A stretch of DNA of 64,000 nt, taken from Deltaproteobacteria bacterium (GTDB lineage Bacteria > Desulfobacterota > Deferrimicrobia > Deferrimicrobiales > Deferrimicrobiaceae). The DNA is taken from assembly GCA_016234845.1 (NCBI GenBank), contig JACRNP010000012.1, positions 478 to 64,477 on the forward strand. The letters run 5' to 3'. A model generated the notes under the pieces. The model saw only the letters and a program-made list of their open reading frames with translations. It was not told where the DNA came from and ran no database searches. This document shows positions 1 to 61,894 of the stretch, piece after piece; positions within the stretch are counted from its first letter, which is position 1, and each line of letters begins with the position of its first letter. The translations under genes were made by a program, and so were the position numbers.

Positions 1-1647
1 GTTTCCTCGTTCAACGTCTTCCGCTCCCCCCTGTTCCTGGTCCCCGGAGCGCTTCTGCTTCTCAACATGCTGTTCTGCGTCGTCCCGAAGGTCCGGGAGA
101 TGCCGGCGGGGAAGCCGCGGACATGGATCTTCGCCTCCCTGCACCTGGGAATCGTGCTGGTTTCGGCGGGGCTCGCGTGGGACGGCTTGTCCGGATTCGT
201 CGGGACGCAATACTATCCGCTGGGACAGCCGTACGCCGGCCACCGCGACTGGCGCGCGGGATCGGACGGGACGTTCCCGTTCACCGTCGAGGTGGTGAGC
301 GCCGACGTGCGGTATCACCCGATCAACCTGCAGATCGGCGTGAAGGACTCCGCGGGGCGGAAAGTGGGACTGTTCGTCGCGCGGGAAGGCGTCCCGTTCG
401 CCGTGGGGAAGGATGCGATGGTCGTCACCCCGCGGAAGTTCCATGTCGACGGGAAGCGGCTTCTGCTGGAGGCGAGCGTCGGCGGGGAACCGGTTCGGAG
501 CCTCGTTGCCACGGAAGGTGCGCCTGCGACCGTTTCCGGGTACTCGATCGTCCCGGTGGCGTTCCGCGACCCTGAGCCGTCCGAATACATCGCCGCGGTG
601 CGATTCCGGCGCCCGGGTCGTCCTCCGGAGGAGCGGACCCTCCGGATCAACACCCCCGCGACCTTCGAGGGGATCTCCTTCTGCATCGTGTCGATGGACC
701 GCGACCGGTACGGGAACACGATCGTCGGCCTCCAGATGACGCGGGAACCGGGCGCGCCGCTGTTCTGGGCAGGGGCGCTGCTGTTCGGAGCGGCGCTGGC
801 CGGCCAGATGTCGCTGAAGATGAGACGGGTCGCCGCGCTCTCCCCGCTCCTGCTCGCGGCGCTCCTTCCCGCGGTGTCCCACGCTTTCGGCGTCGTGGTC
901 GACCGCGACACGACGTGGAGCGGCGAGGTCCGTGTGACCGAGCCGGTTTCCGTGGAAAAAGGGGCGACGCTGCGCATTCTCCCCGGGACCGTGGTGCTCC
1001 TCTCCGGCGACGACCGGAATCGGGACGGCTGCCCCGACGGCGGGATCCTCGTGTACGGAACGTTGCGGGTCGAAGGGGAGCGCGGCAGGCCGGTCCGCTT
1101 CTCCCGGATCGACCCGGCGAAGCCGTGGGACGAGATCTTCCTGAAGGACGCGAACGCGACGATCGCGCACGCCGTGGTCGAAGGGGCGGGGTGGGGGCTC
1201 CATATCCACGACGGGGACGTTCGCGTGGAGAGGACGGTCCTCCGGGGGAACGGCGGGGGGGCGCGGATGCGGGGGACGGGGGTCACGTTCCTCCGGTGCA
1301 CCGTCTCCGGGAACGGGGTCGGGCTCCGCTTCTGGGAAGGCGGACCCCGCGTGTCCGGTTCCGTCATCGAAGGGAACGGAACCGGCATCTTCTATAGGGA
1401 CGGCGCGGGGGGTGGTAAAATCACCGGAAGCCGGATATCGAACCGGGAGTGGGACGTGAAGGTCGGGGATTGGGCAGCCGGCGACCTCGACCTGTCGGGG
1501 AACTTCTGGGGCGGGGCCGGCTCGCGGGGTTCCCCCCGGGTGCGGGATTACCGCGAGCGGAAGGGACCGGGAAAGGTCGCGCTCGACGCGGAGCTCGCGG
1601 CATCGCCCCGGGATGCCGGGGCGGATGCGCCGGAGGGGATGCGATGA
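1..1647 (+). CDS. Cytochrome c biogenesis protein ResB/CcsB-like (5' end lies outside the window) that reads through, via an extra hydrophobic segment, into a C-terminal parallel beta-helix (NosD/CASH-like) domain
   Basis: Frame 1 is open from nt 1. Two TM segments (LFLVPGALLLLNMLFCVV, WIFASLHLGIVLVSAGLAW) are followed by a roughly 190-aa soluble region with a ResB-like motif LRINTPATFEGISFCIVS and then a last TM, PLFWAGALLFGAALAGQM. There is no stop after it. Instead the frame runs into KMRR-VAALSPLLLAALLPAVSHA-FG, which is either a fifth TM or an internal signal peptide (ATG at 808 and 820). Then comes a beta-helix module beginning TWSGEVRVTEPVSVEKGATLRILPGTVVLL with Gly/Asn-rich turns. The first in-frame stop is at 1645-1647. 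Confidence 0.55.
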   Translation, partial: VSSFNVFRSPLFLVPGALLLLNMLFCVVPKVREMPAGKPRTWIFASLHLGIVLVSAGLAWDGLSGFVGTQYYPLGQPYAGHRDWRAGSDGTFPFTVEVVSADVRYHPINLQIGVKDSAGRKVGLFVAREGVPFAVGKDAMVVTPRKFHVDGKRLLLEASVGGEPVRSLVATEGAPATVSGYSIVPVAFRDPEPSEYIAAVRFRRPGRPPEERTLRINTPATFEGISFCIVSMDRDRYGNTIVGLQMTREPGAPLFWAGALLFGAALAGQMSLKMRRVAALSPLLLAALLPAVSHAFGVVVDRDTTWSGEVRVTEPVSVEKGATLRILPGTVVLLSGDDRNRDGCPDGGILVYGTLRVEGERGRPVRFSRIDPAKPWDEIFLKDANATIAHAVVEGAGWGLHIHDGDVRVERTVLRGNGGGARMRGTGVTFLRCTVSGNGVGLRFWEGGPRVSGSVIEGNGTGIFYRDGAGGGKITGSRISNREWDVKVGDWAAGDLDLSGNFWGGAGSRGSPRVRDYRERKGPGKVALDAELAASPRDAGADAPEGMR

Positions 1648-2582
1648 GCGGGCGGTGCCGGAGCCGCAGGGAGTTCCTGAGAGAAGCGGGGTGCGCGGTC
1701 GGGGCGGCGGTTCTGGGCGCCGGGATTCCGATTCCGGGGTTCGCGGCGTCCGGAAAAAGCGTCGACGTCTCGGTCGCGTCGGCCGGAGATCCCGCCGAAT
1801 GCGCGCGAAGGGCCGTCGCGTCGCTGGGCGGGATGAAGTCGTTCGTCTCCCGGGGGGATATCGTCGTCCTGAAGCCCAACATCGGGTGGGACCGCACGCC
1901 CGAGCAGGCGGCCAACACGCACCCGGAGTTCGTCGTGGCGGTCGCGGAGATGTGCCTGGCGGCCGGGGCGAAGTCGGTCCGCGTCTTCGACCGCACGTGC
2001 AACGAACCCAGGCGCTGCTACGCGAGCAGCGGCATCCAGGCCGCCGTGGAGCGGTTCGCGAAGAAGGCGCGCGCGGAGGACGCGCTGCGCGTGTACCACG
2101 CGGAAGACCGGAAATTCGTCCGGACCGCCATCCCGGGAGCGCTGGTCCTCAAGGAATGGGATCTGCACCGGGACGCGCTCGAGGCGGACCGGATCGTGAA
2201 CCTCCCGATCGCAAAGCACCACACGCTGGCTTCCGCCACCCTGGGGATCAAGAACATGATGGGGATCATGGGCGGGAACCGGGGACAGATCCACAACCGG
2301 CTGTCGGAGTGCCTCGCGGACATCCATCGGAGGGTCCCCGTCCACCTGACCGTGATCGACGCGTGGCGCGTGCTGATGCGGAACGGCCCTTCCGGGGGGA
2401 ACCTCGCGGACGTGAAGGCGTTCGGCAAGGCGATCGCCTCCCGGGACGTGGTCGCGGCCGACGTGGTCGCCGCGGAGAGGATCTTCGGCGTCGAAGTGCA
2501 GGATGTTCCGCACGTCCGGAAGGCGCTGGAGGCGGGGATCGGGATCTCTTCCATCGCGCAGATCCGCCGGATCGAGGGTTGA
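1644..2582 (+). CDS. Tat-signal DUF362 family protein (possible Fe-S/redox protein)
   Basis: The ATG at 1644 overlaps the upstream stop (ATGA). The N-terminus MSGRCRSRREFLREAGCAVGAAVLGAG is a twin-arginine signal. The DUF362-like core is IVVLKPNIGWDRTPEQAANTHPEFVVAVAEMCLAAGA...IAKHHTLASATLGIKNMMG. The longer ORF start at 1449 is Arg/Gly-rich read-through of the upstream gene's other frame. Confidence 0.7.
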   Translation: MSGRCRSRREFLREAGCAVGAAVLGAGIPIPGFAASGKSVDVSVASAGDPAECARRAVASLGGMKSFVSRGDIVVLKPNIGWDRTPEQAANTHPEFVVAVAEMCLAAGAKSVRVFDRTCNEPRRCYASSGIQAAVERFAKKARAEDALRVYHAEDRKFVRTAIPGALVLKEWDLHRDALEADRIVNLPIAKHHTLASATLGIKNMMGIMGGNRGQIHNRLSECLADIHRRVPVHLTVIDAWRVLMRNGPSGGNLADVKAFGKAIASRDVVAADVVAAERIFGVEVQDVPHVRKALEAGIGISSIAQIRRIEG

Positions 2583-5500
2583 CCCCGCGGATCCGACGCG
2601 CCGTCTTCTCCGCGCCGGTCCTTCTCTGGCTGGCGGTTTCGGCGTGCGCGCACGCGCCGGCGGGGCCGGCCCCACCGATGCCGGGCGCCGCCGTCCTTCC
2701 GGTCGCGTACATCGCAGCCGATACGGTCTGGAGCGGCGACGTCCACATCGAAGGCGTCGTGCACGTGCGCAAGGGGGCGACGCTCACCGTCGCTCCCGGG
2801 ACGCGCATACACTTCTCCGCCGCGAAGGGGTCCTCTTCGGAAGAGCACGAAGGGTTCGCGGGCGCAGGCATCCGGGTGGACGGGCGGATCGTCGCCGTCG
2901 GAACCGAAGAGTCCCCGATCGTCTTCACCACCGAGGGAAGGCCGGCCGTCCCCGGTTCCTGGGACAAGATCCTCTTCACGTTCAGCGAGGGGAACCGGTT
3001 CGAGCATTGCGTCCTCGAGGGGGCGCGGTACGCCTTCCATTCCCACTTCTCCGGGATAACCGCGCGCCGGTGCGTTTTCCGGGACAACGAGGAGGGAGTG
3101 CGTCTCGGGTTGTCGCGGGTGCGAATCGAGGATTCGGTCTTCACGCGGAACCGGGTCCGCGGGATCAACTTCCGGGAGTCCCGGAACGAGATCGTCGGGA
3201 ACCTGGTGTACGAAAACGGCGACGGGATCTTCCTCCACTCGAAGAGCTCCGGTTCGACGATCCGCGGAAACGCGATCTACTCGAACCGCGGATTCAACCT
3301 GCGCCTCGGCGACCTGCACGCCGACGACGCCGACGTTTCCGGGAACTGGTGGGGGACAGCCTTCGAGGCGGACATCCGGAGCACGATCCACGACGGCGCC
3401 GCGACCCCCGGCACGGGGACCGTCCGGCTCGCGCCGATCCTCCTTCTCCCTCCCGCGACCCGTGGAGCGATCCGGGGGGTGTTCACGAGAAACCTGGTTC
3501 CGGTGGCGGGCGCGGAGGTCCGCGCATACGGTTCGGTCGCACGGGGGTTCTGGGGGGAGCTCCCGATCGCCTCCTCCCGTACCGACGAATCGGGGTACTT
3601 CCGGCTGCCGGTGCCGCCCGGGCGGTACTTCGTCGTCGGGAAGGCGGTCTCCCCGGGAGGGCGCCTGTTCGCTTTCCCGGGCCGGAACCCGATCGCAGTC
3701 GCCCTCGATGAAACGGCGGAGGTCGGGTTGCCGGCCGTCCTGCAGCCGCCGTCGAGCGCCCCTTCGGTGAAGGAGGCGCCCCGCTCCTCGATCGCGGCCA
3801 GGGCGACCATCGATGGGAGACCGGCCGCCGGCGTCTCGGTCCACGCCACCCGCCCCGACCGCCCGGATTTCCGGGGGCCCGGGGAGGCGTCGGCCGTGAC
3901 GAACGCGGAAGGGGTGGCGATCCTTTACCTTCCTCCGGGGAAATATCTCCTCTCCGCGAAGAAACGGACGACCGGGGCGGCGTTCGGGATGGTGGACGAA
4001 GGGGGGCTCTTCGGCGTGTACCCGGACTCCCCGGTCGATCTGTCCGCGGGCCGCGCGGTCGCGGTGGAGATCCCGCTGTTCGAGAAGGTCGGCCTGCTCG
4101 GCGCGTCCTCCGACCGTGAAGAGGGCGGTCTCCGTGATCCCGGTCGGGACGTGTCGAAGGCGGTGGCGGAGGGCGCAACCCGCGCAAGGAGGCCGGCGGC
4201 GGAATTTCCGCCGGGGACGATCGGCGGTTTTCTCTCGGGGAAGATCACCTTGTCGGGACGCGTCGAAGTGACGGAGGATCTCCTCCTCCTCCCGGGCGCG
4301 GAGCTGTCGCTTTCCCCCGGGGCCGAGCTGCGGTTCTCGAAGAGCGAATCGACCAAGGTGGACCCGGAGTTCTACCTCGGGGGGACGGAACTGGTGGTCC
4401 GCGGCACGCTGCGCGCGGAAGGAGCCCGGTTCGTCTTCCCCGACCGGACCGGCGGGGTGGTGGTCGACGGCGGGAGGGCCGAACTTGCGGATGTCGCGAT
4501 CTCCGGCGCCGAGGCGGGGCTCACGATCCTGGGGGGCGGGTCCGCGGCCTTCCACGGAACCGTCGCGGTCGAAAATTGCCGAACCGGCGTTGCGCTCTTT
4601 CCGGCACAGGGCGTCGGGTGGGAGGGGAACGGCACCGTCACGGCCAGGGGAAACGCGGTCGGGGCGGTACGGTTTCCCGGAGCCCCCGCGCTGCCGGCGG
4701 GTTTTCGGGCGGAGGAGAGCGAGGAGGCCGACGTGATCGCGTGGGCGACGCCACCCGGGGACCGGCGTGAAACAGGATCCGCGCCTCCCGCGCCGTCGCG
4801 GGGCGCCCGCAGGATCGTCGACACCTTCCTTGAAACGGATCGCACCCTGGAAGGCGACGTCGTGATCGACGGGATCGTCCGGGTCGCGCCCGGCGCCACC
4901 CTGACGCTTCTCCCGGGGACCCGCCTCTTCTTCACATTCCGGGACACCGACGGCGACGGGATCGGGGAGAACGGGATCTTCCTGCAGGGGAACCTCCGCG
5001 CCCGGGGGACGGCCGATCGGCCGATCGGGTTCCACCCGGAGGCGGGGCGCGGCCCGGGACGCTGGGACTCCATCAATTTCATGGCGAGCGACCGCGGGGA
5101 GAACGTCCTCGAGCACGTCGAGATCGTCGGGGCGTACCGAGGGCTCCACGCCCACTTCAGCCGGCTCGAGGGGAGGTTCGTCCGGATCGCGGAGTGCAAC
5201 CGGGGCGTGCAGTTCCAGGAGTCGGAAGTGTCCTTCATGCACCTTCGCATCGCCTCCTCTTCGAGCGCCGTCCGGTGCCGCGACTCCGAAGTCCGGATCG
5301 ACGGGTTCGAGGCGAGCGACACCGTCTCGGGGGGGAACTTCTTCCGCAGCCGGGTTTCCCTCTCCGGGGTCCGGACCGATCGCTCCGGGTGGTACGGTTT
5401 CCGGTTCCGCGAGAGCCGGGTGGATCTCCGGGACGGCGGTGTGGCCGGATCCCTGGTCGGCGTGTCGATCCAGGAAGGGGAGATTTCCGCGGAAGGGATG

Positions 5501-5788
5501 GAGTTCGTCGGAAACGGGCTGGCCGCCGTGGGTGTGCTGGATGGGGATGTTAAACTGGAGGGATGCGCCCTGAACGACAGCCGCGTCGACGGGATCGGGG
5601 CGACGCGGGGGAAGATATCGGTCCGGGGCGGGGAGATCGCGCGGTACGGCCGGCACGCCGTCAAGCTGGGCGGTCCGGCGGAGGTGGCGTTGCGGGGAAC
5701 GAAGGTGTCGGGGGGAGCGGGCGCATCCCCCGTGATGTATTACGACGGGCGCGCGTCCGCGGGGCTCGGGACGGTTCGCGTTGAGTAG
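2579..5788 (+). CDS. Large lipoprotein with three parallel beta-helix (NosD/CASH-like) modules and a carboxypeptidase-regulatory-like beta-sandwich
   Basis: The TTG at 2579 overlaps the upstream TGA (TTGA). The N-terminus M/LTPRIRRAVFSAPVLLWLAVSAC is a lipoprotein signal with a VSAC lipobox. The motif TVWSGDVHIEGVVHVRKGATLTVAPGTRIHFS recurs at about aa 60, 560 and 750 (DRTLEGDVVIDGIVRVAPGATLTLLPGTRLFFTF) and also in the beta-helix domain of the 1..1647 gene. A CarbopepD_reg-like segment is RGVFTRNLVPVAGAEVRAYGS...GYFRLPVPPGRYFVV. The ORF-track start at 1613 is a spurious N-terminal extension. Confidence 0.7.
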   Translation: MTPRIRRAVFSAPVLLWLAVSACAHAPAGPAPPMPGAAVLPVAYIAADTVWSGDVHIEGVVHVRKGATLTVAPGTRIHFSAAKGSSSEEHEGFAGAGIRVDGRIVAVGTEESPIVFTTEGRPAVPGSWDKILFTFSEGNRFEHCVLEGARYAFHSHFSGITARRCVFRDNEEGVRLGLSRVRIEDSVFTRNRVRGINFRESRNEIVGNLVYENGDGIFLHSKSSGSTIRGNAIYSNRGFNLRLGDLHADDADVSGNWWGTAFEADIRSTIHDGAATPGTGTVRLAPILLLPPATRGAIRGVFTRNLVPVAGAEVRAYGSVARGFWGELPIASSRTDESGYFRLPVPPGRYFVVGKAVSPGGRLFAFPGRNPIAVALDETAEVGLPAVLQPPSSAPSVKEAPRSSIAARATIDGRPAAGVSVHATRPDRPDFRGPGEASAVTNAEGVAILYLPPGKYLLSAKKRTTGAAFGMVDEGGLFGVYPDSPVDLSAGRAVAVEIPLFEKVGLLGASSDREEGGLRDPGRDVSKAVAEGATRARRPAAEFPPGTIGGFLSGKITLSGRVEVTEDLLLLPGAELSLSPGAELRFSKSESTKVDPEFYLGGTELVVRGTLRAEGARFVFPDRTGGVVVDGGRAELADVAISGAEAGLTILGGGSAAFHGTVAVENCRTGVALFPAQGVGWEGNGTVTARGNAVGAVRFPGAPALPAGFRAEESEEADVIAWATPPGDRRETGSAPPAPSRGARRIVDTFLETDRTLEGDVVIDGIVRVAPGATLTLLPGTRLFFTFRDTDGDGIGENGIFLQGNLRARGTADRPIGFHPEAGRGPGRWDSINFMASDRGENVLEHVEIVGAYRGLHAHFSRLEGRFVRIAECNRGVQFQESEVSFMHLRIASSSSAVRCRDSEVRIDGFEASDTVSGGNFFRSRVSLSGVRTDRSGWYGFRFRESRVDLRDGGVAGSLVGVSIQEGEISAEGMEFVGNGLAAVGVLDGDVKLEGCALNDSRVDGIGATRGKISVRGGEIARYGRHAVKLGGPAEVALRGTKVSGGAGASPVMYYDGRASAGLGTVRVE

Positions 5789-9175: not shown

Positions 9176-9186
9176 GGAGGTTTCCG

Positions 9187-9540
9187 ATGATCCTGCCCAA
9201 GCGCAACCCCGAGGTCGTCTGGCGTCTGGAGAAGGGGATCCACGCCATGGCGTGGGACAAGGCGCGCAAGGAGGAGGATTTCGAGGACGTCGGGGTGTTG
9301 ACGCTGATGGTCCAGGGCGGGATCCACCAGCTGAACCTGGTGGGGGCCGAGATCTGGACCCGGATCAACGGGATCAACACCGTCTCGAAGATCTCCGCGG
9401 AAGTGTCGGCGCTGTTCGGATGGGAACCGGGGGAGACGGAAGAGGCGGTGCTCGAGTTCCTGAAAGGGATCGAGGAGAAGGGGTGGGTCACGCTTGCGCC
9501 CGCTCCCGGCCGCGCGCCCGCCCCGGGGGGAAGGGCGTAG
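9187..9540 (+). CDS. PqqD-like peptide-binding protein (RiPP recognition element, RRE)
   Basis: The sequence MILPKRNPEVVWRLEKGIHAMAWD...LNLVGAEIWTRINGINTVSKISAEVSALFGWEPGETEEAVLEFLKGIEEKGWV follows the PqqD/PF05402 pattern (a 'LN.tg..iW.l.dG..tv.ei...l' core with an 'ef...L...gli' tail). It lies directly upstream of a radical SAM/SPASM gene, separated by 3 nt. Confidence 0.7.
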   Translation: MILPKRNPEVVWRLEKGIHAMAWDKARKEEDFEDVGVLTLMVQGGIHQLNLVGAEIWTRINGINTVSKISAEVSALFGWEPGETEEAVLEFLKGIEEKGWVTLAPAPGRAPAPGGRA

Positions 9541-9543
9541 CCG

Positions 9544-10548
9544 ATGCTTCCGTACCTCCCCTCGCCCGTCACCGTCAACTGGGGGATCACGGCGCGCTGC
9601 AACTTCGTCTGCAGCCACTGCTTCTCCCGCCTCGACCCGTCCCCGGAGCTGTCGCCCCCGGAGGCGAGGCGCGTGGTGGACATCCTCGCGGAGCGGTCGG
9701 TGATGTTCCTCAACTACGGGACCGGCGAGCCGCTGCTCCGCCCGGACCTGTTCACGCTTACGGAGCACGCGGTGGGGAGGGGCTTGAAGGTCACGATGAA
9801 CAGCAACGGATCGCTGATCGACGCGGCCGCGGCCCGGAGGATCCGCGAGGCGGGGTTCCACTCCGTGGGGATCAGCATCGATTCGGCGTCGGCGTCCGTC
9901 CACGACTCCTTCCGGAGGATGCCCGGCAGCTTCGGCAAGGCCGTGAAGGCGGCGCGCCTGCTGCGGGAAGAGGGGATCGCCCTCACGATCTCGTCGGTCG
10001 TCTGCAAGGTGAACCACGACGATTTTCCGGCGCTGGTCGCGCTGGCGAAGGAGCTCGGGGCGGGGACCATCGACCTGCACAACTTCAAATGCTCCGGCAT
10101 GGGGGGGCTGAACAAGGAGGCGTTGGACCTGTCGCCCGCGGAGTGGAAGGCGTTCTACCAACGCGCGGTGCCCCTCCGCGACGCGGAACACGGCATCGCC
10201 ATCGCCTTCGACGACCCGATCCTCTCGTTGCTGGGCGGGGAAGACAGGGGCCGGCTCGTCGCCGGATCGGTGTGCGGAAAGTTGTCCCTCTACATCAAGC
10301 CGAACGGGGAGATCACCCCGTGCGGTTTCATCCCGGTGACGATCGGCCATATCCTGCGGGACGATTTCGGCGAGGTGTGGCACGGGTCGGAGCTGCTCGC
10401 CCGGCTGCGAACCAAGGCGGCGGCCGGGAAATGCTCGGGATGCGCGAAATTCTCCTCGTGCCTCGGCGGCTGCACCGCCCGCGCGTTCGCCGTGTACGGC
10501 GCCTGGGACGCTCCCGATCCCCATTGCTGGTCCGACGGGAAATCCTGA
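9544..10548 (+). CDS. Radical SAM/SPASM-domain peptide-modifying enzyme (PqqE/anSME/MftC-like)
   Basis: The N-terminal radical SAM cluster is WGITARCNFVCSHCF (CxxxCxxC). The C-terminal SPASM cysteines are SVCGKL...PCGF...CSGCAKFSSCLGGCTARA. Confidence 0.85.
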   Translation: MLPYLPSPVTVNWGITARCNFVCSHCFSRLDPSPELSPPEARRVVDILAERSVMFLNYGTGEPLLRPDLFTLTEHAVGRGLKVTMNSNGSLIDAAAARRIREAGFHSVGISIDSASASVHDSFRRMPGSFGKAVKAARLLREEGIALTISSVVCKVNHDDFPALVALAKELGAGTIDLHNFKCSGMGGLNKEALDLSPAEWKAFYQRAVPLRDAEHGIAIAFDDPILSLLGGEDRGRLVAGSVCGKLSLYIKPNGEITPCGFIPVTIGHILRDDFGEVWHGSELLARLRTKAAAGKCSGCAKFSSCLGGCTARAFAVYGAWDAPDPHCWSDGKS

Positions 10549-10615
10549 CGCAAGACGCTCCGCCGCACGCCTCCCGCGGTAAAATGTCCGGACTCGTCGC
10601 ATTCGGGAGAGGAAC

Positions 10616-11521
10616 ATGGAGTTTTCGCTGCCCATACGCATCCGGTGGGACGTCGATTTCCGGGGGCGGTCCGGCCGGGTGAAGCGGATCGCACGCCGCG
10701 TCGCGGAAGCGTCCCCGCTCTTCGTGGAGCTTCACATTTCCGGCAATCGCGGATGGAAGGAGTTTCCCGCGATCGTCGCGGAACTCCAGAAGGCGGGGTG
10801 CCGGGTTTCCGCGCACATCGCCCTTTTTCCGGAAGCCGGGGCCGCTCCCCGCAGGGGGTACCCGGTGGATTTCGTCTGGGACATCGGACGAACCGCGGGA
10901 TTCGTCCCGCGACTTCCGGACGGGGCCACCGCGGTCTCCTTCGTTCCCGACGACGAATCGGCGGAAGAGCTGCCGGAAGTGCTCACGGAGTTCGCGGAGT
11001 GCGGGATCTCCGACCTGCACCTGGTGAACGTGAACGCGGTCCGTTCGATCGCGGAACGCGGGCACGTGCCGGTTCCGGCGATCGGCAAGCTCCGGGAGGC
11101 CGTGGCGGAGACCGCCTCCAGGGGGACGGCGCTCGAAGGAAAACGGCTGGTGGTGCACGACTACTTTCTCTGGAAGGCGCTCTCGGACATGTACCCGGGG
11201 ACGACGGGAGAGCGCGTCGAGTTCACCGGGTGCCAGGCCGGCACCGCGCTGGCCTTCGTGGACTGGGAAGGGAACGTGTACCCGTGCGACTCCCTCCCGA
11301 TCCGGCTCGGCAACATCGAGGAGTCCGCCTTCATCGACGTGTGGGATTCTCCGGTGCGGTCGCGGGTGGTCGATTCCATCCGGGGAACGCCGTGGGCGTG
11401 CGACGGGTGCGGCGAATACCGCGGGTGCTTCGGCGGTTGCCGCGGCATGGGGTACCTGGCGGCGGGTTCCCTCGATGCGCCGGACCCGGCGTGTCCTTCG
11501 GTCCCCCGCACCGATCGTTGA
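10616..11521 (+). CDS. Pseudo-radical-SAM/SPASM protein (SPASM-type C-terminal Cys clusters but no CxxxCxxC SAM cluster)
   Basis: It has a good RBS (GGGAGAGG) before the ATG. The C-terminus FTGCQAGTALAFVDWEGNVYPCDSL...WACDGCGEYRGCFGGCRGMGY resembles a SPASM/twitch domain. The first 200 aa contain a single Cys and no CxxxCxxC. Length and the C-terminal layout parallel the adjacent true rSAM. Confidence 0.65.
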   Translation: MEFSLPIRIRWDVDFRGRSGRVKRIARRVAEASPLFVELHISGNRGWKEFPAIVAELQKAGCRVSAHIALFPEAGAAPRRGYPVDFVWDIGRTAGFVPRLPDGATAVSFVPDDESAEELPEVLTEFAECGISDLHLVNVNAVRSIAERGHVPVPAIGKLREAVAETASRGTALEGKRLVVHDYFLWKALSDMYPGTTGERVEFTGCQAGTALAFVDWEGNVYPCDSLPIRLGNIEESAFIDVWDSPVRSRVVDSIRGTPWACDGCGEYRGCFGGCRGMGYLAAGSLDAPDPACPSVPRTDR

Positions 11522-42178: not shown

Positions 42179-44500
42179 TCACTTCCGCCCCATTGCTCCC
42201 GGGGCGGAAACGTTCCGGTCGCGGACCGTTCCGAGTCTGGCCGCCCGGCGCAAATCCTCCGCTCCGCCCTCCGTGTCCCCGGCCCCGTTTCTTGCGATTC
42301 CTCGCAGAAAATACGATTCCGCGTCTCCAGGTGAAAGCGCGATTGCCGCGGAAAGGGATCTGACGGCTTCCGCGTACTTTCCCTCCGCACCCTGGACCTC
42401 GCCCAGCCGCCGCCAGGACTGGGGATTCCCCGGCGCGTATCTTGTCGCCCGCACCAGGTACTCCTCGGCCTTTCCCGGATCTCCCGCGGCGATGTGGCAT
42501 TCCCCGAGATTGTGAAGAGCGGGAGCGTAACTTCCGTTGACGGAGAGGGAAAGCTCGAACGCACGGATTGCTCCATCGAGGTCTCCCGTTTCAAACCGGA
42601 TGATACCCAACTTCGCGTAGGCGTCCTCGGAAGGGATGATCCGGATCGCCTCCCGGAGCTGTTCCTCCGCTCCCGGGGCGTCTCCCCATCCCTTGTAAAG
42701 GAGTATCCCTGCGAAGTACCGGGCCCAATAGTGGTCGGGCGCCGCGGCAAGGGAGTTGCGGAGCGTATCCGCCGCCTCGTCCCGCCGACCCAGAAACAAC
42801 GATCTTTCCGATGACATCCTGTGCATGTCGGAAACCAGTTCCCGGGTCCGATGATCCGGTCGGGGACCGGACGTCCGAAAGAAGGGTGTCGTGATGAACC
42901 GATCGCTCCGGAGATCGGGGAGATTCCCCGTCTTTGCCATGGAGAAGCCGTGGAGGAGTCCGAACGGGATGGAGACCTCCTCTCCGCCGGGGGCGTAGGG
43001 AGCCACCTGGTTGCTGAAATAGAGCTGCCCGGCATGTTTTCTCGATAGGGTTCGATCGATCTCCTTTCGTATCCGATCCTGTTCGGCGGGAAGGTCCTCG
43101 CCGTAAGCGGCGTTGTAATCGGTCCGGAAGAGGCGACCGCTGCGGCCGTACAAGGCCACGTCCTCCCGGTATCCTTCGACCAGGCGGAAGTAGAGGAGGG
43201 GGAACGTCGGAACGTCGTACTCCGTCGCCAGGGCGGATGACGGCGGAAGGGGATCCAGGAGATTGAGGGTGTATGCGTGCAGTTGCAGCGCTTCGGATCG
43301 GTCGGCCCGATCCCGGTTCGCGCGGATGGTCGCCGCCACCAGAAGAGCCAGGACGGAGAGGCAGATGGCTCCGGAAACGCGGCGGAAGGCCGCACCGGGT
43401 CGTCTCGCGGCGAATGCGGCGACCCATTCCCATATCTGCGCGGCGCCGAACGTGCATGCCAGCGCGAGCATCGCGTACGTTCCAAGGAACTTGTTGGAGC
43501 TGATCCCGAGAAAAATCTCCGGACTCGGATCGTTCAGGAGGAATATCGTACCCGCGGCGGGGAGGAGAAGCAGCATGAGGAACGCAGGAAGAAGATCGAG
43601 TCGGAATCGCCGCCAGAGAAGCCATGCTCCCGGCGGAAGGAGGAACGCGAAGGGCCACGGCCATTGCCCGCCGACGAGCCGAACGAGGTCCACTGTCCTT
43701 CGAAGAAGGCGTCCCCAGGAAAAATCGAGGGAAGGCCTCTCGGAGTACTGGGTCCAGAAGATATGACCGATGAAATTGGCGGCGGTTGATACTTCCCCCC
43801 AGTTCAGCGGCGGTCCGGTCGCAGCCCGCAGGGGAAGCAGAAGGAACAGGGACCAGCCGGCGGCTCCGCAGAGGATTGCATGGGGAATCGATCGCGCGGC
43901 GGCCCTCCACCCCGTTCTTCTTGCGAAGAGGAACGCGATTCCCGGAAGCGCGAACAGGATGAAATAGTGGATCCCCAGCATGAATCCGAAAAGGAACGCC
44001 GCGGAGCAAATGCGGTGATGATCGCGACGGGATCTTTCGGAACCGCCGATACCCGGAGGGACGGGAGGTGCCTGCGCGGCCAGCAAGAGGAGCAGCATGA
44101 GGCCGAATAAGTGGAGCGTATATACTTCCGCGGATCCGGATTGCGCCCAGATATCCGCGGAGAGGACCATCAGGATGGCTCCGAGAATCGAAGGGGCCGC
44201 GAGGCCGGTGACACGGAGCGCAAACAGGGCGAATACGGAAGACGCCGCGGCGGTCCCGATGGCAGACAGCAAGTTCAGACGGAACGCGGTGTTTCCGAGC
44301 GGGAGGAGTTCCGCGATCTTCCCGAGGACGACGTAGTGCGGGTACCCGGGAGGGTGGGGGATCCCGAGGACGTGGGCGGCGGCGGTGAACTCCGGGCTGT
44401 CTCCGGGATAGATCGATGGCGCAACGGTGAAGGAGAGCGCCCCCATCGCCGCGACGAAAGGAACCAGAACAACGGCGAGGAGGCGCCTTCGCTCATCCAC
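42179..44500 (-). CDS. DUF2723/PMT-like (GT39/GT83-type) polytopic glycosyltransferase-family membrane protein with C-terminal TPR repeats
   Basis: It is convergent with the upstream + gene, 8 bp apart. The N-terminal 520 aa are very hydrophobic (more than 10 TM) and carry the family-like N-terminal motif YPGDSPEFTAAAHVLGIPHPPGYP. The C-terminal 250 aa are TPRs (AGILLYKGWGD..., ALHNLGECHIAAGDPGKAEEYL..., SWRRLGEVQGAEGKYAEAVRSL...). Confidence 0.7.
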   Translation of the reverse strand: MDERRRLLAVVLVPFVAAMGALSFTVAPSIYPGDSPEFTAAAHVLGIPHPPGYPHYVVLGKIAELLPLGNTAFRLNLLSAIGTAAASSVFALFALRVTGLAAPSILGAILMVLSADIWAQSGSAEVYTLHLFGLMLLLLLAAQAPPVPPGIGGSERSRRDHHRICSAAFLFGFMLGIHYFILFALPGIAFLFARRTGWRAAARSIPHAILCGAAGWSLFLLLPLRAATGPPLNWGEVSTAANFIGHIFWTQYSERPSLDFSWGRLLRRTVDLVRLVGGQWPWPFAFLLPPGAWLLWRRFRLDLLPAFLMLLLLPAAGTIFLLNDPSPEIFLGISSNKFLGTYAMLALACTFGAAQIWEWVAAFAARRPGAAFRRVSGAICLSVLALLVAATIRANRDRADRSEALQLHAYTLNLLDPLPPSSALATEYDVPTFPLLYFRLVEGYREDVALYGRSGRLFRTDYNAAYGEDLPAEQDRIRKEIDRTLSRKHAGQLYFSNQVAPYAPGGEEVSIPFGLLHGFSMAKTGNLPDLRSDRFITTPFFRTSGPRPDHRTRELVSDMHRMSSERSLFLGRRDEAADTLRNSLAAAPDHYWARYFAGILLYKGWGDAPGAEEQLREAIRIIPSEDAYAKLGIIRFETGDLDGAIRAFELSLSVNGSYAPALHNLGECHIAAGDPGKAEEYLVRATRYAPGNPQSWRRLGEVQGAEGKYAEAVRSLSAAIALSPGDAESYFLRGIARNGAGDTEGGAEDLRRAARLGTVRDRNVSAPGAMGRK

Positions 44501-45986
44501 GGTCGGACACCATCGCCATTATCCGTGCCGCCACCCGGGCCTTCCGGATTAGTTCGCCCGGTGAACCGATGGACAACATCTGCCGACCCACGTATTTCCA
44601 ATTCAGATAGAACTCCCGGTAGGCGCTCCGCAGGCACCGTTCCAGTTCCGCGGAAGGAATCCCGGAAAACAGGTGGTTGTGTACGGGAGCGGAGTGGAGG
44701 CCGTGAAGCGCATTCTTCCCGATGTAGGTGGAGGAGCGGACTCCGCAGTTGCGCTCGAGGTCTCCGTACAGCTCGGTGCCGGGGAAAGGGGTGCAGATCG
44801 ACATGGTGAAATAGGTCGGGCGAATCTCCCGAATGAGGCGGATCGTCTCCTGGAAGTCCGCCGGCGATTCTCCGGGAAGCCCGACCATGGTATGGGAATG
44901 CGTGGATAGTCCCGACTTCCGGCAAGCCTCGAAAGCGGCCACGGTATCGGCCACGGAGATCCCTTTCCGGATCCGGTCGAGGACCGGCTGGCTTCCCGAC
45001 TCCACCCCCATCCGCACGAGGTGGCATCCGGCGGACCGCATCGCCCTTGCGGCCTCCTCATCGATCATATCCACCCGGGTGCTGCATATCCATTCGATCC
45101 GGATGCCCAGGCGGGATATTTCCGAACAGATCCGGAAGAGCCGCCGTCGATCCCCCGTGAACAGTTCATCCCGGAAGAATACCTCCCGATACCCTTCGTC
45201 GCGGACGACGCGCAGCTCGGATATGACGGACTCCGCGGACCGATATCGGGCTCTCCCCCCGAAGAATCCGGGCGAGGAGCAGAAGGTGCACCGGCCGAAG
45301 CAGCCGCGGGACGTGAACATCGTGGTGAAGCGCCGATGCCGCACGACCGGATTGAAGTACCTCCGGCTGTCCGGCAGCAGTTTTCGATCGGGAACCGGGA
45401 GGGAGTCCAGGTCCGGAGATGGCCCGGTGGTTTCCGGGAGCTCGACGACCCCGCCCCTCCTCCGGCCGACTCCGGGGATCTCTCCGAACCGGTATCCACC
45501 GTCGGTGAGGGATCGGCAGAGGCCGGAGAGGGCCGTCTCCGGCTCTCCGCATACGATGTAATCGATGCCGTCCCGGGCCAGCGCCTCCGCCGGCTGGAAG
45601 GTAGGAAAAGCACCGAGAAGAACGGTACGGGCGCCGGTGTTCGACCGCATCCGCCGGAGAAACGGGACGTCGATTTCCGCGCTGAGAGGCGAGGAAACGC
45701 AGATCAACAGGTCCTCCGGTGAAAGACGCGCTGCGACTTCCGACTCGGAGAGTCCTTCCGCCGGCGCGTCGGCGATCCGTGCGGGAATCCCTTCGCGGAG
45801 CAACATCGTCGCCATCTGGGCGAGGGGGACGGGGGGGAATTCGATGCCGCCGACCCTCCTGCCGCCGCACCAGCACCCGTGCATCAGGTCCCGGACAAGT
45901 CCCCGGTTTCCCGGCAGCGGGGGATTAACGAACAGTGCGCGCAACGATTTTCCCCCTCGATGTCTCCCGATTTCCCACGAGGCAAC
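44493..45986 (-). CDS. B12-binding-domain radical SAM protein (class B rSAM, methyltransferase-like)
   Basis: A cobalamin-binding-like N-terminus (ALFVNPPLP...IADAPAEGL...DLLICVSS) is followed by the rSAM cluster TSRGCFGRCTFCSS. The start is uncertain: the ORF track gives 46031, while a GTG near 45986 would reduce overlap with the upstream gene. Confidence 0.75.
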   Translation of the reverse strand, partial: VASWEIGRHRGGKSLRALFVNPPLPGNRGLVRDLMHGCWCGGRRVGGIEFPPVPLAQMATMLLREGIPARIADAPAEGLSESEVAARLSPEDLLICVSSPLSAEIDVPFLRRMRSNTGARTVLLGAFPTFQPAEALARDGIDYIVCGEPETALSGLCRSLTDGGYRFGEIPGVGRRRGGVVELPETTGPSPDLDSLPVPDRKLLPDSRRYFNPVVRHRRFTTMFTSRGCFGRCTFCSSPGFFGGRARYRSAESVISELRVVRDEGYREVFFRDELFTGDRRRLFRICSEISRLGIRIEWICSTRVDMIDEEAARAMRSAGCHLVRMGVESGSQPVLDRIRKGISVADTVAAFEACRKSGLSTHSHTMVGLPGESPADFQETIRLIREIRPTYFTMSICTPFPGTELYGDLERNCGVRSSTYIGKNALHGLHSAPVHNHLFSGIPSAELERCLRSAYREFYLNWKYVGRQMLSIGSPGELIRKARVAARIMAMVSDRG

Positions 45987-47625
45987 GGTAGGAGATTTCC
46001 TGCCCGCTCGTCTCGAATCCGAGGTCCACATTCACCGTGCCGCCGGTGCGCCACGCATCCGAGATGGCCGCCGCGGTATCCCCGGAGAGGATCGGGGGAA
46101 GGGAGAGCTCGAGCTCGGAAAACATCTGGGACGAGGGATGGTTCGAGGGTCCGCCTCCCGGAACGGTGTACAGCTCCGTTCCCCGCGCGGCCCGTGAAGC
46201 GTCGAGGGAGTCAAGGATCCGGATGGTTCCGGGTAGAATATCGATCCGACGGCGAAGGCGGGCCGGTCCGGGCGCACCGGGGCCAAACGCGTACGACTTG
46301 ATCCGGGTTTCGATCCATCCTCCCGCGCCGAACAGTCGTCCACCGGCGAGACAGGACGAAACCAGCCGCGCGTGCCGACTTCCCCCGGGGAGGGATCGGA
46401 AGGTGGCGGACCCCTCCACCGCATCTCCGGCCGCATGAAGGAAACTCCCGTCCCAGTACGGAATGAAGATTTCACGCCGGGAGCGGAGACAATACGTGTG
46501 CCCGATCCATATCGTCCGGTGCAATGTGTTCGAAAACACCGCGATCCCTCCCCTCCTCTCCTGGAGGTGAACCCGGAACGCATCACCGGAGAACACCCGC
46601 ACCCCCCCCTGTTCCCTGTGGGACGATTTTGGGACATCCTCCCCGGGTTCGACGACCGCATCGGAGCAGCGAAAATGGGCGTCCACGTAAGAGGGGAGGA
46701 AAAAATGGGCGGTATACCGCCGATCGGCAGTCGACGGCGTCGGGATCCTCCCCTCGAAAGCCGCGAGGCGGATCCGGCGCGCGACACGCCGGGCGGCCGG
46801 CTCCTCCTCCGCCCAGCGTTCGATGGCGTAGGGCACGATGAAGTTCGTTCCGCGCCATGAAAGCGAGGAAGGGCTGGAGCCGTCGGGCAGGACGGAGGCG
46901 TCGAGAAATTCCAGCCCGGACCGGATCGCGTCCCGGACTCCCCGGAGTCCGCGGTCGAAGCAGCGCGTGAGGGAATCCAGCGTCAGGGATTCGTACCCCG
47001 GATCGGGCCCGCCGTACTCGGAAGTCCATCCTTCCCGCGTGCGCCCGGACAGGATCCTTTCCAGGAAGCGGTCCCTGGATCGGCCCCACCGGGATCCGAG
47101 GAGGGAGCAAGAGTTGTGGAAGGCGAGAAGCGCGGCGGCGGACTGGTTCCCGGGATGGGATTCCTTTACGCGAGCCATCCAGGCGGCGGCGCGCTCCAGA
47201 ACGGCAAGCACGCTCCGCCTTCCGGCGGAACCGGAGGGATCTCCCGGTTGCAGAAGTACTTCCGAGAGATACGCGGAAAGGTACGCCGTAGCGCAGAAAC
47301 TCGGCTGGCCGGGATACCATTCGGGGAAAGAACCGTTTTTGTTCTGCCGCGATGCGGTAAAGACGAGTGCCCCGCGAAGCAGCCGGAGGAGTTCGTCGTT
47401 CCGATGATACGGATTGCCCCGTCCGTCCTCCGACCAAAGACGGGCGAGGGGATAGACGGCGCACTGCAGGGTCGCCGGGTGGAAATCGCCGGCGAAACGG
47501 TAGAGCCAGGACTCCCGATTGAAGCTCCCCTCCAGCAGGGAGCCCGGGGAACGGTCGAGATCCCCGAGTAGGCGATGCAGGGCGGGGGTGATATGATCCC
47601 AGTATGGTGTTGCGGGAAGGCTCAT
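45925..47625 (-). CDS. Hypothetical (alpha/alpha)-toroid-like protein, possibly heparinase II/III-like or a six-hairpin lyase/glycosidase; function uncertain
   Basis: It is a 566-aa ORF in an operon-like arrangement with the glycosylation/modification genes. Segments such as ASRQNKNGSFPEWYPGQPSFCATAYLSAYL are typical of toroid-fold carbohydrate-active proteins. The family assignment is tentative. Confidence 0.45.
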   Translation of the reverse strand: MSLPATPYWDHITPALHRLLGDLDRSPGSLLEGSFNRESWLYRFAGDFHPATLQCAVYPLARLWSEDGRGNPYHRNDELLRLLRGALVFTASRQNKNGSFPEWYPGQPSFCATAYLSAYLSEVLLQPGDPSGSAGRRSVLAVLERAAAWMARVKESHPGNQSAAALLAFHNSCSLLGSRWGRSRDRFLERILSGRTREGWTSEYGGPDPGYESLTLDSLTRCFDRGLRGVRDAIRSGLEFLDASVLPDGSSPSSLSWRGTNFIVPYAIERWAEEEPAARRVARRIRLAAFEGRIPTPSTADRRYTAHFFLPSYVDAHFRCSDAVVEPGEDVPKSSHREQGGVRVFSGDAFRVHLQERRGGIAVFSNTLHRTIWIGHTYCLRSRREIFIPYWDGSFLHAAGDAVEGSATFRSLPGGSRHARLVSSCLAGGRLFGAGGWIETRIKSYAFGPGAPGPARLRRRIDILPGTIRILDSLDASRAARGTELYTVPGGGPSNHPSSQMFSELELSLPPILSGDTAAAISDAWRTGGTVNVDLGFETSGQEISYRCLVGNRETSRGKIVARTVR

Positions 47626-48230: not shown

Positions 48231-49589
48231 TTACGGTTTCGTAAGGACCGCCACTCCCAACGTGCCGAAACGGGACTCCTTCCCGGCGTCTCTTCCGAGT
48301 CGCCGCTCCATCCAGCCGGCGAAACGGTTCTCCGGCACTTCACGGTGGAGGTAGGTCCGTCCTCCCGATCGACGGTACTGCTGATAAAGTCGGAAGAATT
48401 CCGGGAGGAGCGGGGGAACCGGGAACCTTCGGTGGATTTTCACGCGGAATCCCGCATCCCGGGCGTGGCGCGCGACCGTATCGGGGCGGACCGGCCGGTA
48501 CGGGCCGAAGAAGGAGTGGACAGCCGTCTTCCGAAGGTTGTCGCCGCGGGACGCGAGCAGGAGGCGGTGGAGGGCCCCATACAGGGAGGATGATATCCGG
48601 AATACGACCAGGAAGCGGCCTCCGGACCGGAGCAACCGCCAGATCCGCTCGAAGAGACGCCGGTACTCCCGCTCCGGCAGCCGCTCGATCCGGAATATCA
48701 GCGTGGCGTTGTCGAAAACGCCGTCCGGAAATGGATCGAGCCGTTCGAAGGTTAGGAATGATGCCTCGGGAAAGGTCCGCGCCAGCGTTTCGCGGGAGTA
48801 CCCGGATGTCTCCTCGGAGAGGTCGGCGAAGGTGGCCAGGCACTTGACGGGCCGAAAGAACTCGAGTGAAGAATGCCCGTCGTAGGAGAACAGGTCCAGG
48901 CAGGTTCCGCCCTCCAGCGGGAACAGGGATCGGGCCTCGGAGATCTCCAGGGGGGAGAAGATGTCCTGGGGGGTACCTTGAATGGTCTTCCCGCACTCCA
49001 GCCGCTGGTGTGTCCGGATCTGCTCCAGGTTCCAGCGATCGGCGTCGTGGGTCAGCGGATAGGCAGGCGCTTCGGAAAAGCGTCCCCAATGGGTTATCTC
49101 CTCGATCGGCTTCCTGGAGGGAGGGGGAGGGGCCTCGTCCGGATATCCCGTCAGAACGATCGATGTCAGGAAATATTCCGGCGGGTAACCGAGGATCTTC
49201 CGGCAGCGGGCCTCGTTCCCGAAGGAGTTGAGCCAGAGCGCACCCAGTCCCTGGTTCCCCGCCTCGATGAGCATATTTTCGATTGCGGCGGAAGAGGACT
49301 GGAATCCTTCCGCCATGTTTTCGTTCCTGTACAGGCATGCGATCGCGACGGGCGCCTCCTTCAGCAGGCGGGACGCTCCCGCATCCCGTACGAGCGCGGC
49401 TCTCGCTTCGGCATCTTCGATCACGATGAAGTGCCAATCCTGGCGGTTGCATGCGGAAGGCGCGATCCGCGCGGCTTCGAGAAGCGCGAGGATTTTCCCC
49501 CGTTCCACGGGCCGATGCCGGAATCGGCGTACGCTCCTCCGGTTCCGAAGGAGTTCGGATATCGGCGGGATCCTATTTTCCGGCGACAT
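48231..49589 (-). CDS. Nitroreductase-family domain fused to a class I SAM-methyltransferase-like domain
   Basis: The N-terminus is LRNRRSVRRFRHRPVERGKILALLEAARIAPSACNRQDWHFIVIED (nitroreductase). The C-terminal half has methyltransferase-like motifs GGTCLDLFSYDGHSS...LLRSGGRFLVVF. Confidence 0.65.
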   Translation of the reverse strand: MSPENRIPPISELLRNRRSVRRFRHRPVERGKILALLEAARIAPSACNRQDWHFIVIEDAEARAALVRDAGASRLLKEAPVAIACLYRNENMAEGFQSSSAAIENMLIEAGNQGLGALWLNSFGNEARCRKILGYPPEYFLTSIVLTGYPDEAPPPPSRKPIEEITHWGRFSEAPAYPLTHDADRWNLEQIRTHQRLECGKTIQGTPQDIFSPLEISEARSLFPLEGGTCLDLFSYDGHSSLEFFRPVKCLATFADLSEETSGYSRETLARTFPEASFLTFERLDPFPDGVFDNATLIFRIERLPEREYRRLFERIWRLLRSGGRFLVVFRISSSLYGALHRLLLASRGDNLRKTAVHSFFGPYRPVRPDTVARHARDAGFRVKIHRRFPVPPLLPEFFRLYQQYRRSGGRTYLHREVPENRFAGWMERRLGRDAGKESRFGTLGVAVLTKP

Positions 49590-50301: not shown

Positions 50302-50302
50302 C

Positions 50303-51211: not shown

Positions 51212-51255
51212 GTTACACGGGATTCTCCTTTCGCGCCATCCACCTTGGCGTAGCG

Positions 51256-61887: not shown

Positions 61888-61894
61888 GATCGGA

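Follow-up and report, generated by a model that had tools for sequence, protein, structure and literature searches.

The first 1,647 nucleotides (nt) of a 64,000-nt stretch of a metagenome-assembled genome (MAG) of a Deltaproteobacteria bacterium (contig JACRNP010000012.1, positions 478 to 64,477; hereafter, the window) contain most of an open reading frame (ORF A) whose product joins a short ResB-like membrane module to a right-handed beta-helix. The overall explanation that best fits the data, with a probability of about 0.6, is that ORF A encodes a bipartite ResB-like/beta-helix envelope protein of 585 amino acids (aa), located in a gene cluster that is linked to giant multihaem cytochromes. 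The evidence supports a true and conserved fusion, with the beta-helix on the periplasmic side of the ResB-like protein. The protein adds a new domain architecture to the ResB/CcsB family and is encoded in an uncharacterised cluster; literature searches combining ResB, beta-helix and multihaem, DUF362 and NosD, or multihaem, NosD and beta-helix retrieved no description of this architecture or cluster.

The left edge of the window lies 111 nt inside the ORF A gene, and the product encoded within the window is 100% identical to residues 38-585 of the 585-aa protein MBI5904130.1 (P0259), originating from a "Deltaproteobacteria bacterium" MAG and publicly named "right-handed parallel beta-helix repeat-containing protein", with nothing more. 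Public annotation overlooks the ResB half of such proteins, the products being named "hypothetical" or "beta-helix repeat protein", and no NCBIfam model matched ORF A. A reading of the DNA made from its letters alone (the sequence-only reading) had proposed that the ResB-like frame runs on without a stop past its last transmembrane (TM) helix. Indeed, frame 1 is open and free of internal stops throughout nt 1-1647, and the G+C content at third codon positions is unbroken at the junction (0.87 for nt 1-807, 0.90 for nt 808-900, and 0.87 for nt 901-1644), in a window with a G+C content of approximately 69%. About 85 near full-length homologues were retrieved, ranging from 580 to 662 aa. As the ORF A frame recurs in independent assemblies, a sequencing error, for which nt 780-830 had been flagged, or a pseudogene was rejected as the source of the fusion.

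A first line of evidence concerns the N-terminal 310 residues of ORF A, which correspond to a short protein of the ResB/CcsB superfamily, comprising four TM helices and a periplasmic beta-rich domain of approximately 180 aa. Homology of this part to ResB, as proposed for nt 1-830, is established, being thin by sequence and strong by fold. The PF05140 (ResB) match of ORF A (44.5 bits, cut-off 24.6) was confined to residues 240-277, corresponding to the TM4 motif. An AlphaFold2 (AF2) model was made for a full-length homologue that is 90% identical to ORF A, and 53 homologues were aligned. The model (mean predicted local distance difference test score (pLDDT) 86.8) consisted of two well-folded domains with a low-confidence linker between them, and displayed helices at residues 8-28, 47-70, 76-101, and 289-310 (full-length numbering) as well as a beta-rich domain at residues 103-284. 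The best PDB matches found with Foldseek, and the only strong ones, were the structures of H. hepaticus CcsBA (7S9Y, E 6e-11; 7S9Z, E 1e-9; probability 1.0, 356 columns). PDB sequence searches with the full-length homologue, the family profile, and the two genes downstream (ORF B and ORF C) yielded nothing useful; it was the fold comparison alone, not a PDB sequence search, that picked out CcsBA for ORF A.

Like the System II protein CcsB/ResB (CcsBA; 7S9Y/7S9Z), ORF A folds into TM helices that surround a large beta-rich domain in the periplasm, keeps an invariant TM histidine and a conserved cysteine near the cytoplasmic face, and has its C-terminus used as fusion point. In contrast with canonical CcsB/ResB (450-550 aa), its ResB-like part counts approximately 310 aa and it has no fused or nearby CcsA/WWD partner, the fused partner being a beta-helix attached via an extra signal-peptide-like helix. 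Moreover, the C-terminal extension of unfused CcsB is cytoplasmic (PMC10663686), whereas that of ORF A is exported. Among 128 diverse ResB-like representatives (50% cluster level), H85 was present in all and C63 in 126. H85 is the presumed positional equivalent of TM-His1 of CcsBA. In CcsBA, the TM-haem sits in the inner leaflet with TM histidines as ligands (PMC10663686), and B. subtilis ResB binds haem, probably via a cysteine (PMC3884852). Judging from these conserved residues, a haem-type site at H85/C63 of the ResB-like module is plausible. A profile of the standalone short relatives retrieved 2,747 representatives (50% cluster level) among 1.84 billion proteins, mostly of 300-420 aa. The fused type accounts for a single 50%-cluster representative within this short-ResB family, indicating that the fusion marks one clade, made up of uncultured iron-reducer-like bacteria.

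A second line of evidence concerns the junction, which reads ...FWAGALLFGAALAGQMSL-KMRR-VAALSPLLLAALLPAVSHA-FGVVVDRDTTWSGE... in ORF A. In the simplest, topological reading, TM4 ends in the cytoplasm, so that a signal anchor or signal peptide is needed for export of the C-terminal domain. The suggestion that KMRR is followed by a Sec signal or a fifth TM helix proved apt, as the hydrophobic segment behaves accordingly throughout the 53 fused homologues: all of them possess basic residues followed by a hydrophobic segment (mean Kyte-Doolittle value 2.63, minimum 1.91), and all display the features of a Sec-type signal, namely a basic n-region, an h-region, and small residues at positions -3 and -1. 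The in-frame fusion is retained in at least these 53 aligned homologues, whose identity to the reference homologue P0001 is 48-81%, with linker lengths varying from 31 to 105 residues. From this topology, we infer that the beta-helix is located in the periplasm. A putative signal peptidase I site is found in ORF A directly after SHA (SHA-FG, the dash before FG marking the putative point of cleavage here and below). Similarly, most of the 53 homologues carry [SA]xA just ahead of a conserved FG or SG, the complete [SA]xA-[FS]G box being present in at least 30 of them. The conserved [SA]xA-FG box is thus a putative site at which signal peptidase I would release the beta-helix, and such cleavage is given an even chance.

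The sequence-only reading had offered a choice between a true fusion that places a beta-helix in the periplasm and a secreted beta-helix protein with an internal start. The conserved frame argues for the former. The latter would imply two ordinary proteins, the beta-helix being made mainly from an internal start and secreted via Sec, with read-through as an incidental event. Two in-frame ATG codons just ahead of the hydrophobic segment (nt 808 and 820) and the viable stand-alone secreted beta-helix of the split variants described below are compatible with such a scheme, but it is highly improbable, given that no stop is present, so that the long product must be made, and that the frame is retained over highly variable linkers. 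Moreover, a methionine close to the hydrophobic segment occurs in only 8 of the 53 homologues and neither ATG of the window is preceded by a Shine-Dalgarno sequence, in contrast with ORF B, which has a perfect GGAGG at a spacing of 7 nt; on these two grounds, an internal ATG was rejected as the main start.

Thirdly, one sublineage (L002, L004, and L005) contained a toxin-antitoxin pair of the MNT (NTP_transf_2)/HEPN type exactly in the ORF A linker. In these split loci, the ResB-like ORFs (330-341 aa) end soon after TM4, and the beta-helix ORFs possess their own methionine and signal peptide, starting with MLPLLNAAVGASLLLFLCLSPVASHV or MIPRWNDVAALVLLFVAALPSPSHA, each directly followed by FGVVIDRD after the putative cleavage point. 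The ResB-like halves are intact across the split variants, being 78-90% identical to one another, and the beta-helix ORFs are intact in the two loci read. The intactness of the split modules indicates that the two halves can work as separate polypeptides, and the own signal of the split beta-helix indicates that the hydrophobic segment can act as an ordinary signal peptide. The ResB-like and beta-helix halves are hence separable modules, and this toxin-antitoxin-driven fission provides a natural test of how modular the fusion is. Bradyrhizobium FbcH (cytochrome b-c1) is a polyprotein with an internal signal, the periplasmic domain of which is exported and released. ORF A is similar in that a polytopic membrane module precedes an internal signal sequence that exports a periplasmic domain, although the proteins are unrelated and the cleavage site of ORF A is putative. 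In L004 and L045, another toxin-antitoxin pair (a 69-aa protein with PIN) separates the two genes equivalent to ORF C, and an AbiEii toxin with a small partner (L045:7403-8302, minus strand) lies between the radical-SAM and SPASM genes, as a third toxin-antitoxin case in this operon.

The beta-helix domain of ORF A (about 250 aa) matched the Pfam family PF13229 (Beta_helix) and was modelled by AF2 with a pLDDT of 94.3 and a predicted TM-score of 0.91. Invariant among the 53 homologues are W-G-L-H-x-H (H438 and H440), W413, E415, R480, R503, and W528, while D441 is not fixed. The H-x-H motif has its equivalents in ORF C as AFHSH and GLHAH. In general terms, [WY]-x-[GA]-[LF]-H-x-H is common to the ORF A beta-helix (nt 1201-1209) and modules 1 and 3 of ORF C (residues ~153-157 and 859-863), and this shared motif could represent a metal, cofactor or catalytic site. 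W-G-L-H-x-H also resembles YG(F/I)DPH(D/E), the active-site motif of mannuronan C5-epimerases. The proposal that the neighbouring lipoprotein carries modules related to the ORF A beta-helix was confirmed by BLASTP, with 35% identity over 214 aa for module 1 (E 1e-28) and 27% identity over 176 aa for module 3 (E 1e-13), whereas for module 2 the cap alone matched (E 2e-4). The likeness is one of whole-domain paralogy, of which the N-terminal cap motif put forward by the sequence-only reading forms the N-terminal end. That motif had been reported to recur three more times in the lipoprotein. As written, it occurs in ORF A alone; in a relaxed form, good copies are found at ORF C residues 51 and 757 and a degenerate one at residue 558.

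ORF B lies between ORF A and the lipoprotein gene ORF C, with overlaps at the stop codons, as read previously: the start of ORF B overlaps the stop of ORF A (ATGA at nt 1644-1647) and that of ORF C overlaps the stop of ORF B (TTGA at nt 2579-2582). ORF B is a DUF362 protein, a domain placed by Pfam in one clan with the N-terminal domain of LarA (PMC11770544). Its twin-arginine translocation (Tat) signal, of which the SRREFL motif was seen, matched TIGR01409 (19.4 bits, cut-off 16.7). The lipobox of ORF C, MTPRIRRAVFSAPVLLWLAVSA-C23 (LAVSA-C23), was read directly from the sequence. Most relatives encode the counterpart of ORF C in two neighbouring genes, one of about 610-624 aa and a following one of about 502-558 aa, the latter with a signal peptide of its own. 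In the window, these counterparts are joined and the internal signal peptide or hydrophobic segment is lost. This is to be expected, since both partners are already periplasmic, and the contrast with ORF A fits a signal peptide that is kept only where topology demands it.

As to the function of the beta-helix, NosD, which takes part in the assembly of N2O reductase with NosFY and NosL, also features a periplasmic right-handed beta-helix on an inner-membrane protein, encoded in a cluster of accessory genes. By analogy with NosDFY-NosL, the beta-helix of ORF A might take a metal or sulfur from a membrane module and pass it to a periplasmic client, which would be in keeping with the invariant His-x-His of the domain. 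In addition, module 1 of ORF C reached the Pfam NosD model (53.9 versus a cut-off of 23.6), although not TIGR04247 (33 versus 300), NapH/NosH-like Fer4_5 polyferredoxin genes occur in the clusters of relatives, and YeeE-like sulfur-transport and ArsP-like permeases are encoded downstream. Nevertheless, a metallocentre assembly of this kind is very unlikely. The ORF A beta-helix matched neither PF05048 nor TIGR04247, belonging to the generic Beta_helix family only, and NosD structures were not among the top 50 Foldseek matches of either the beta-helix or the full-length model. No methionine is conserved in the beta-helix among the 53 aligned homologues, so that the domain lacks the His-Met-Met copper motif by which canonical NosD is defined (PMC13452462). 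Finally, the cluster contains neither a NosF/NosY ABC pair nor a NosZ-like client. A NosD identity of the ORF A beta-helix was therefore rejected on the basis of model, methionine and fold.

The closest folds of the beta-helix are those of polysaccharide-active enzymes, in particular an alginate epimerase/lyase (8JA4), AlgE4 (2PYG), AlgG (4OZY), and the pectate lyase Pel9A (Foldseek, E 5e-4 to 3e-3, the range of best matches extending to E 1e-2). This allows a reading in terms of envelope glycan machinery, in which the beta-helices would bind or modify a polysaccharide, the short ResB would be an anchor or a handler of a lipid-linked substrate, and the cluster would build or remodel a matrix or glycan coat to which the giant cytochromes are anchored. 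A TMEM260/PMT-like glycosyltransferase and a GT2 are encoded in the window, and an outgroup short ResB adjoins a PMT_2 glycosyltransferase. Such a role is rather unlikely, however. Foldseek gave E-values no better than 5e-4, a modest level that is usual for any right-handed beta-helix, and the identity to mannuronan C5-epimerases, alginate lyases and Pel9A is only 12-15%. Conservation does not extend to the catalytic acidic residues of the epimerase motif, as D441 varies, and the core cluster contains no alginate genes and no polysaccharide synthase or export genes. Also, the histidine and cysteine of the ResB-like module are strictly conserved, which would be needless for a mere anchor. The block of the window in which the TMEM260/PMT-like glycosyltransferase (with TPR) and the GT2 are encoded, on the minus strand, further comprises a B12-binding radical-SAM enzyme, a nitroreductase-methyltransferase fusion, and a methyltransferase.

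Judging from genomic context, ORF A is a constant member of a cluster of about 20 genes that is conserved among Deferrimicrobiota-like MAGs. The context upstream of ORF A was taken from the 90%-identical contig L001, with flanks reaching 10 kb per gene. The 5' part of the cluster encodes DUF4198/CarboxypepD_reg (transthyretin-like) and beta-helix lipoproteins, sometimes a Fer4_5 polyferredoxin, and a U32 pair. The middle part encodes an AAA+ ATPase, a small OpuAC-like secreted protein, the ResB-beta-helix protein, the Tat-DUF362 protein, and one or more beta-helix lipoproteins. The 3' part encodes a PhnD-like binding protein, a small TPR protein, YeeE-like and ArsP-like permeases, PqqD, a radical-SAM/SPASM enzyme, and a SPASM protein. 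This gene order is kept in relatives down to about 50% identity. The AAA+ ATPase, which is of the CbbX/SpoVK type (292 aa), and the OpuAC-like protein (~205 aa) are always encoded directly upstream of the ResB-like gene, and the trio is maintained even beside a 36%-identical standalone relative. The PqqD, radical-SAM and SPASM genes suggest peptide or cofactor modification. All 15 related loci in the species-level genome collection belong to uncultured MAGs. The label Candidatus Deferrimicrobia is attached to one relative; this lineage is noted for an abundance of very large multihaem cytochromes (PMC9386147).

In the window, the cluster is followed by genes for an extracytoplasmic function (ECF) sigma factor, an anti-sigma factor, and a 233-aa protein, and then by four giant cytochrome genes, so that ten genes, the sigma/anti-sigma pair among them, separate ORF A from the first cytochrome. 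The SPASM-only protein has a 70%-identical homologue in an unrelated, cytochrome-free context (L025-L027). Because the SPASM homologues retrieved by the metagenome scan include such unrelated contexts, the cytochrome link was re-tested starting from the anti-sigma gene. The junction of cluster, sigma/anti-sigma pair and cytochromes turned out to be conserved in L034 (63% identical), L046 (64%), and L045 (51%). The gene cluster is hence tied by synteny to giant multihaem cytochromes. The sequence-only reading had described ORF A as lying next to cytochromes full of CX3-5CH sites: the association holds as this synteny, whereas such sites are a minority, with 21 CX3-5CH versus 100 CXXCH motifs in the four cytochromes together (approximately 17% non-canonical). 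GSu_C4xC__C2xCH Pfam matches were found in three of the four, the 1438-aa protein being without. Elsewhere in the window, an AhpC/TSA thioredoxin-like domain is joined to a multihaem cytochrome with five Paired_CXXCH matches (nt 61880-63436) and could be a thiol-reduction module on this cytochrome; a separate Redoxin/ResA-like gene (nt 61090-61887) lies ahead of it. The coordinates of the main features are listed in Table 1.

Table 1. Features of the ORF A locus and of related loci. Positions refer to the window (nt) unless a locus label is given.
Feature	Position	Strand	Details
ORF A, ResB-like/beta-helix fusion gene	1..1647	+	5' end beyond left edge of window; stop TGA 1645-1647
TM2	28-99	+	AF2 helix 47-70; near-invariant Cys at nt 76-78 = C63 (C26 in window numbering)
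TM3	115-192	+	AF2 helix 76-101; invariant His at nt 142-144 = H85 (H48 in window numbering)
Periplasmic beta-rich domain of ResB-like module	196..741	+	Full-length residues 103-284; AF2, Foldseek to 7S9Y/7S9Z
TM4	754..819	+	AF2 helix 289-310; preceded by conserved ResB motif GLQMTREPG..LFW.G; Pfam ResB 240-277
Junction	817..885	+	Basic cytoplasmic loop KMRR 817-828, then signal-peptide-like hydrophobic VAALSPLLLAALLPAVSHA 829-885
Periplasmic right-handed beta-helix	886..1644	+	PF13229; N-cap motif nt 913-990; His codons of W-G-L-H-x-H at 1201-1203 and 1207-1209
ORF B, DUF362 protein with Tat signal	1644..2582	+	PF04015, E 3.9e-48; SRREFL nt 1662-1679
ORF C, 1069-aa lipoprotein	2579..5788	+	TTG start; lipobox Cys23 at nt 2645-2647
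ORF C, beta-helix module 1	2720-3361	+	Pfam NosD match
ORF C, transthyretin-like CarboxypepD_reg/DUF4198 domains	about 3497-3961	+	Pfam/NCBIfam
ORF C, beta-helix module 2	about 4247-4798	+	Degenerate
ORF C, beta-helix module 3	4829-5785	+	
PqqD-like protein, radical-SAM/SPASM enzyme, SPASM-only protein	9178-11521		Conserved at cluster end
Four giant multihaem cytochromes	13365-35829		1174, 2486, 1438, and 2016 aa with 18, 43, 17, and 22 CXXCH
Minus-strand block	42179-44500, 44493-46031, 48231-51268	-	
AAA+/OpuAC-like pair	L001:8468-9984, L021:8455-9981, L042:178-1689		
Two-gene counterparts of ORF C	L021:12722-16227, L023:12744-16273		
MNT/HEPN insertions	L004:9041-9743, L002:9063-9765, L005:3381-4083		Gene split into two intact genes

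The sequence-only reading had further proposed a dedicated haem lyase variant, parallel to NrfI and CcsA1, and had called for a check on whether ccsA/resC lies just upstream of the window. The proposal of a dedicated lyase was not supported. NrfI and CcsA1 are dedicated lyases that consist of CcsBA proteins with a WWD domain (PMC10663686). No CcsA/ResC (PF01578) was found in Pfam scans of the window, in the 10 kb upstream of the gene in four relatives with Pfam-listed flanks, the 90%-identical contig included, or in the other Pfam-listed flanks of relatives. Similarly, the WWD motif was absent from 455 kb, comprising the window and 48 related loci. The standalone outgroup short ResB P0389, which is annotated as ResB, is surrounded by genes for TPR proteins, a PMT_2 glycosyltransferase, and radical-SAM proteins (L047:8001-12604), with no CcsA within 8 kb and without cytochromes. 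In the surroundings of the three members or lineages viewed (the fused clade and the standalone P0105 and P0389), no CcsA was near any of them. As no CcsA is nearby, ORF A probably does not act as a haem lyase on its own, and its interpretation as a self-contained specialised lyase is not supported.

Alternatively, the ResB-like module and a CcsA encoded elsewhere could together form a specialised System II synthetase for CX3-5CH sites, with the beta-helix holding the substrate. Consistent with this are the ResB fold with its conserved histidine and cysteine, the conserved synteny with cytochromes bearing GSu_C4xC__C2xCH motifs, and the precedents of the CcsBA enzymes for CXXCK and CX15CH (PMC10663686) and of the extra ResB/ResC pairs of Geobacter (PMC2700814). 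In the latter case too, a ResB paralogue occurs near multihaem cytochromes with CX4CH-type motifs, in a lineage of metal reducers that the present one resembles. However, each extra ResB of Geobacter is co-transcribed with a ResC (HemX-like) protein (PMC2700814), whereas here a ResC-like protein is lacking, the constant partners are the AAA+ ATPase, the OpuAC-like protein and beta-helix proteins, the ten genes with the sigma/anti-sigma pair intervene, and the ResB is fused to a beta-helix. Together with the lack of a CcsA/WWD gene in all sequences searched and the low share of non-canonical sites among the haem motifs, this makes a dedicated lyase quite unlikely.

The likeliest role of ORF A, a tentative one that is read from conserved residues, fold and context, is a ResB-like handling of cofactors that is coupled to beta-helix modules aiding the giant cytochromes. 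TM4 would end in the cytoplasm, and the KMRR loop and the signal-peptide-like helix would carry the 250-aa beta-helix back to the periplasm, where it would either be tethered via a fifth TM helix or be freed by signal peptidase I. In the inner leaflet, the His/Cys site of the ResB-like module would serve to handle haem or a similar hydrophobic cofactor. Physical coupling would link this module to periplasmic beta-helices that, as scaffolds or enzymes, assist the maturation, modification or anchoring of the giant cytochromes. Because no CcsA (WWD) partner is nearby, ORF A would act as an accessory factor and not as a self-sufficient lyase. At a more specific level, the CcsA-free module could export haem or another hydrophobic cofactor directly to its own tethered or released beta-helix, with the invariant His-x-His flanked by Trp and Arg as acceptor. 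This would take place within a hitherto unrecognised periplasmic apparatus for cytochrome maturation or assembly in Deferrimicrobiota-like bacteria that would also comprise the AAA+ ATPase, the OpuAC-like protein, the Tat-DUF362 protein and the beta-helix and transthyretin-like lipoproteins, and that would serve cytochromes with up to 43 CXXCH motifs. This specific version is judged unlikely.

Several points weigh against the role proposed for ORF A. Haem binding is deduced from conserved residues alone, and all hosts are uncultured MAGs. In addition, the canonical ResB mechanism cannot operate locally without CcsA in the neighbourhood, and the context of P0389, with neither CcsA nor cytochromes, may mean that the function of the short-ResB subfamily is unrelated to haem. 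Further, the closeness of the beta-helix to polysaccharide epimerases and lyases points to glycan rather than cofactor chemistry. Lastly, the synteny with cytochromes could stem from co-regulated envelope functions instead of maturation.

Extracytoplasmic haem trafficking is understood for a few machines only and, to our knowledge, it is not known how cytochromes that carry dozens of haems are matured and positioned in bacteria. A conserved, CcsA-less ResB relative that is hard-wired to a periplasmic beta-helix and always lies upstream of giant cytochromes is a concrete candidate for an accessory system of this kind, the cluster of which may assist the maturation, modification or anchoring of these cytochromes. 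The CcsA-less surroundings also raise the question of whether ResB-like proteins may have roles beyond System II. The locus thereby provides a handle both on the servicing of very large multihaem cytochromes and on the CcsA-less short ResB proteins.

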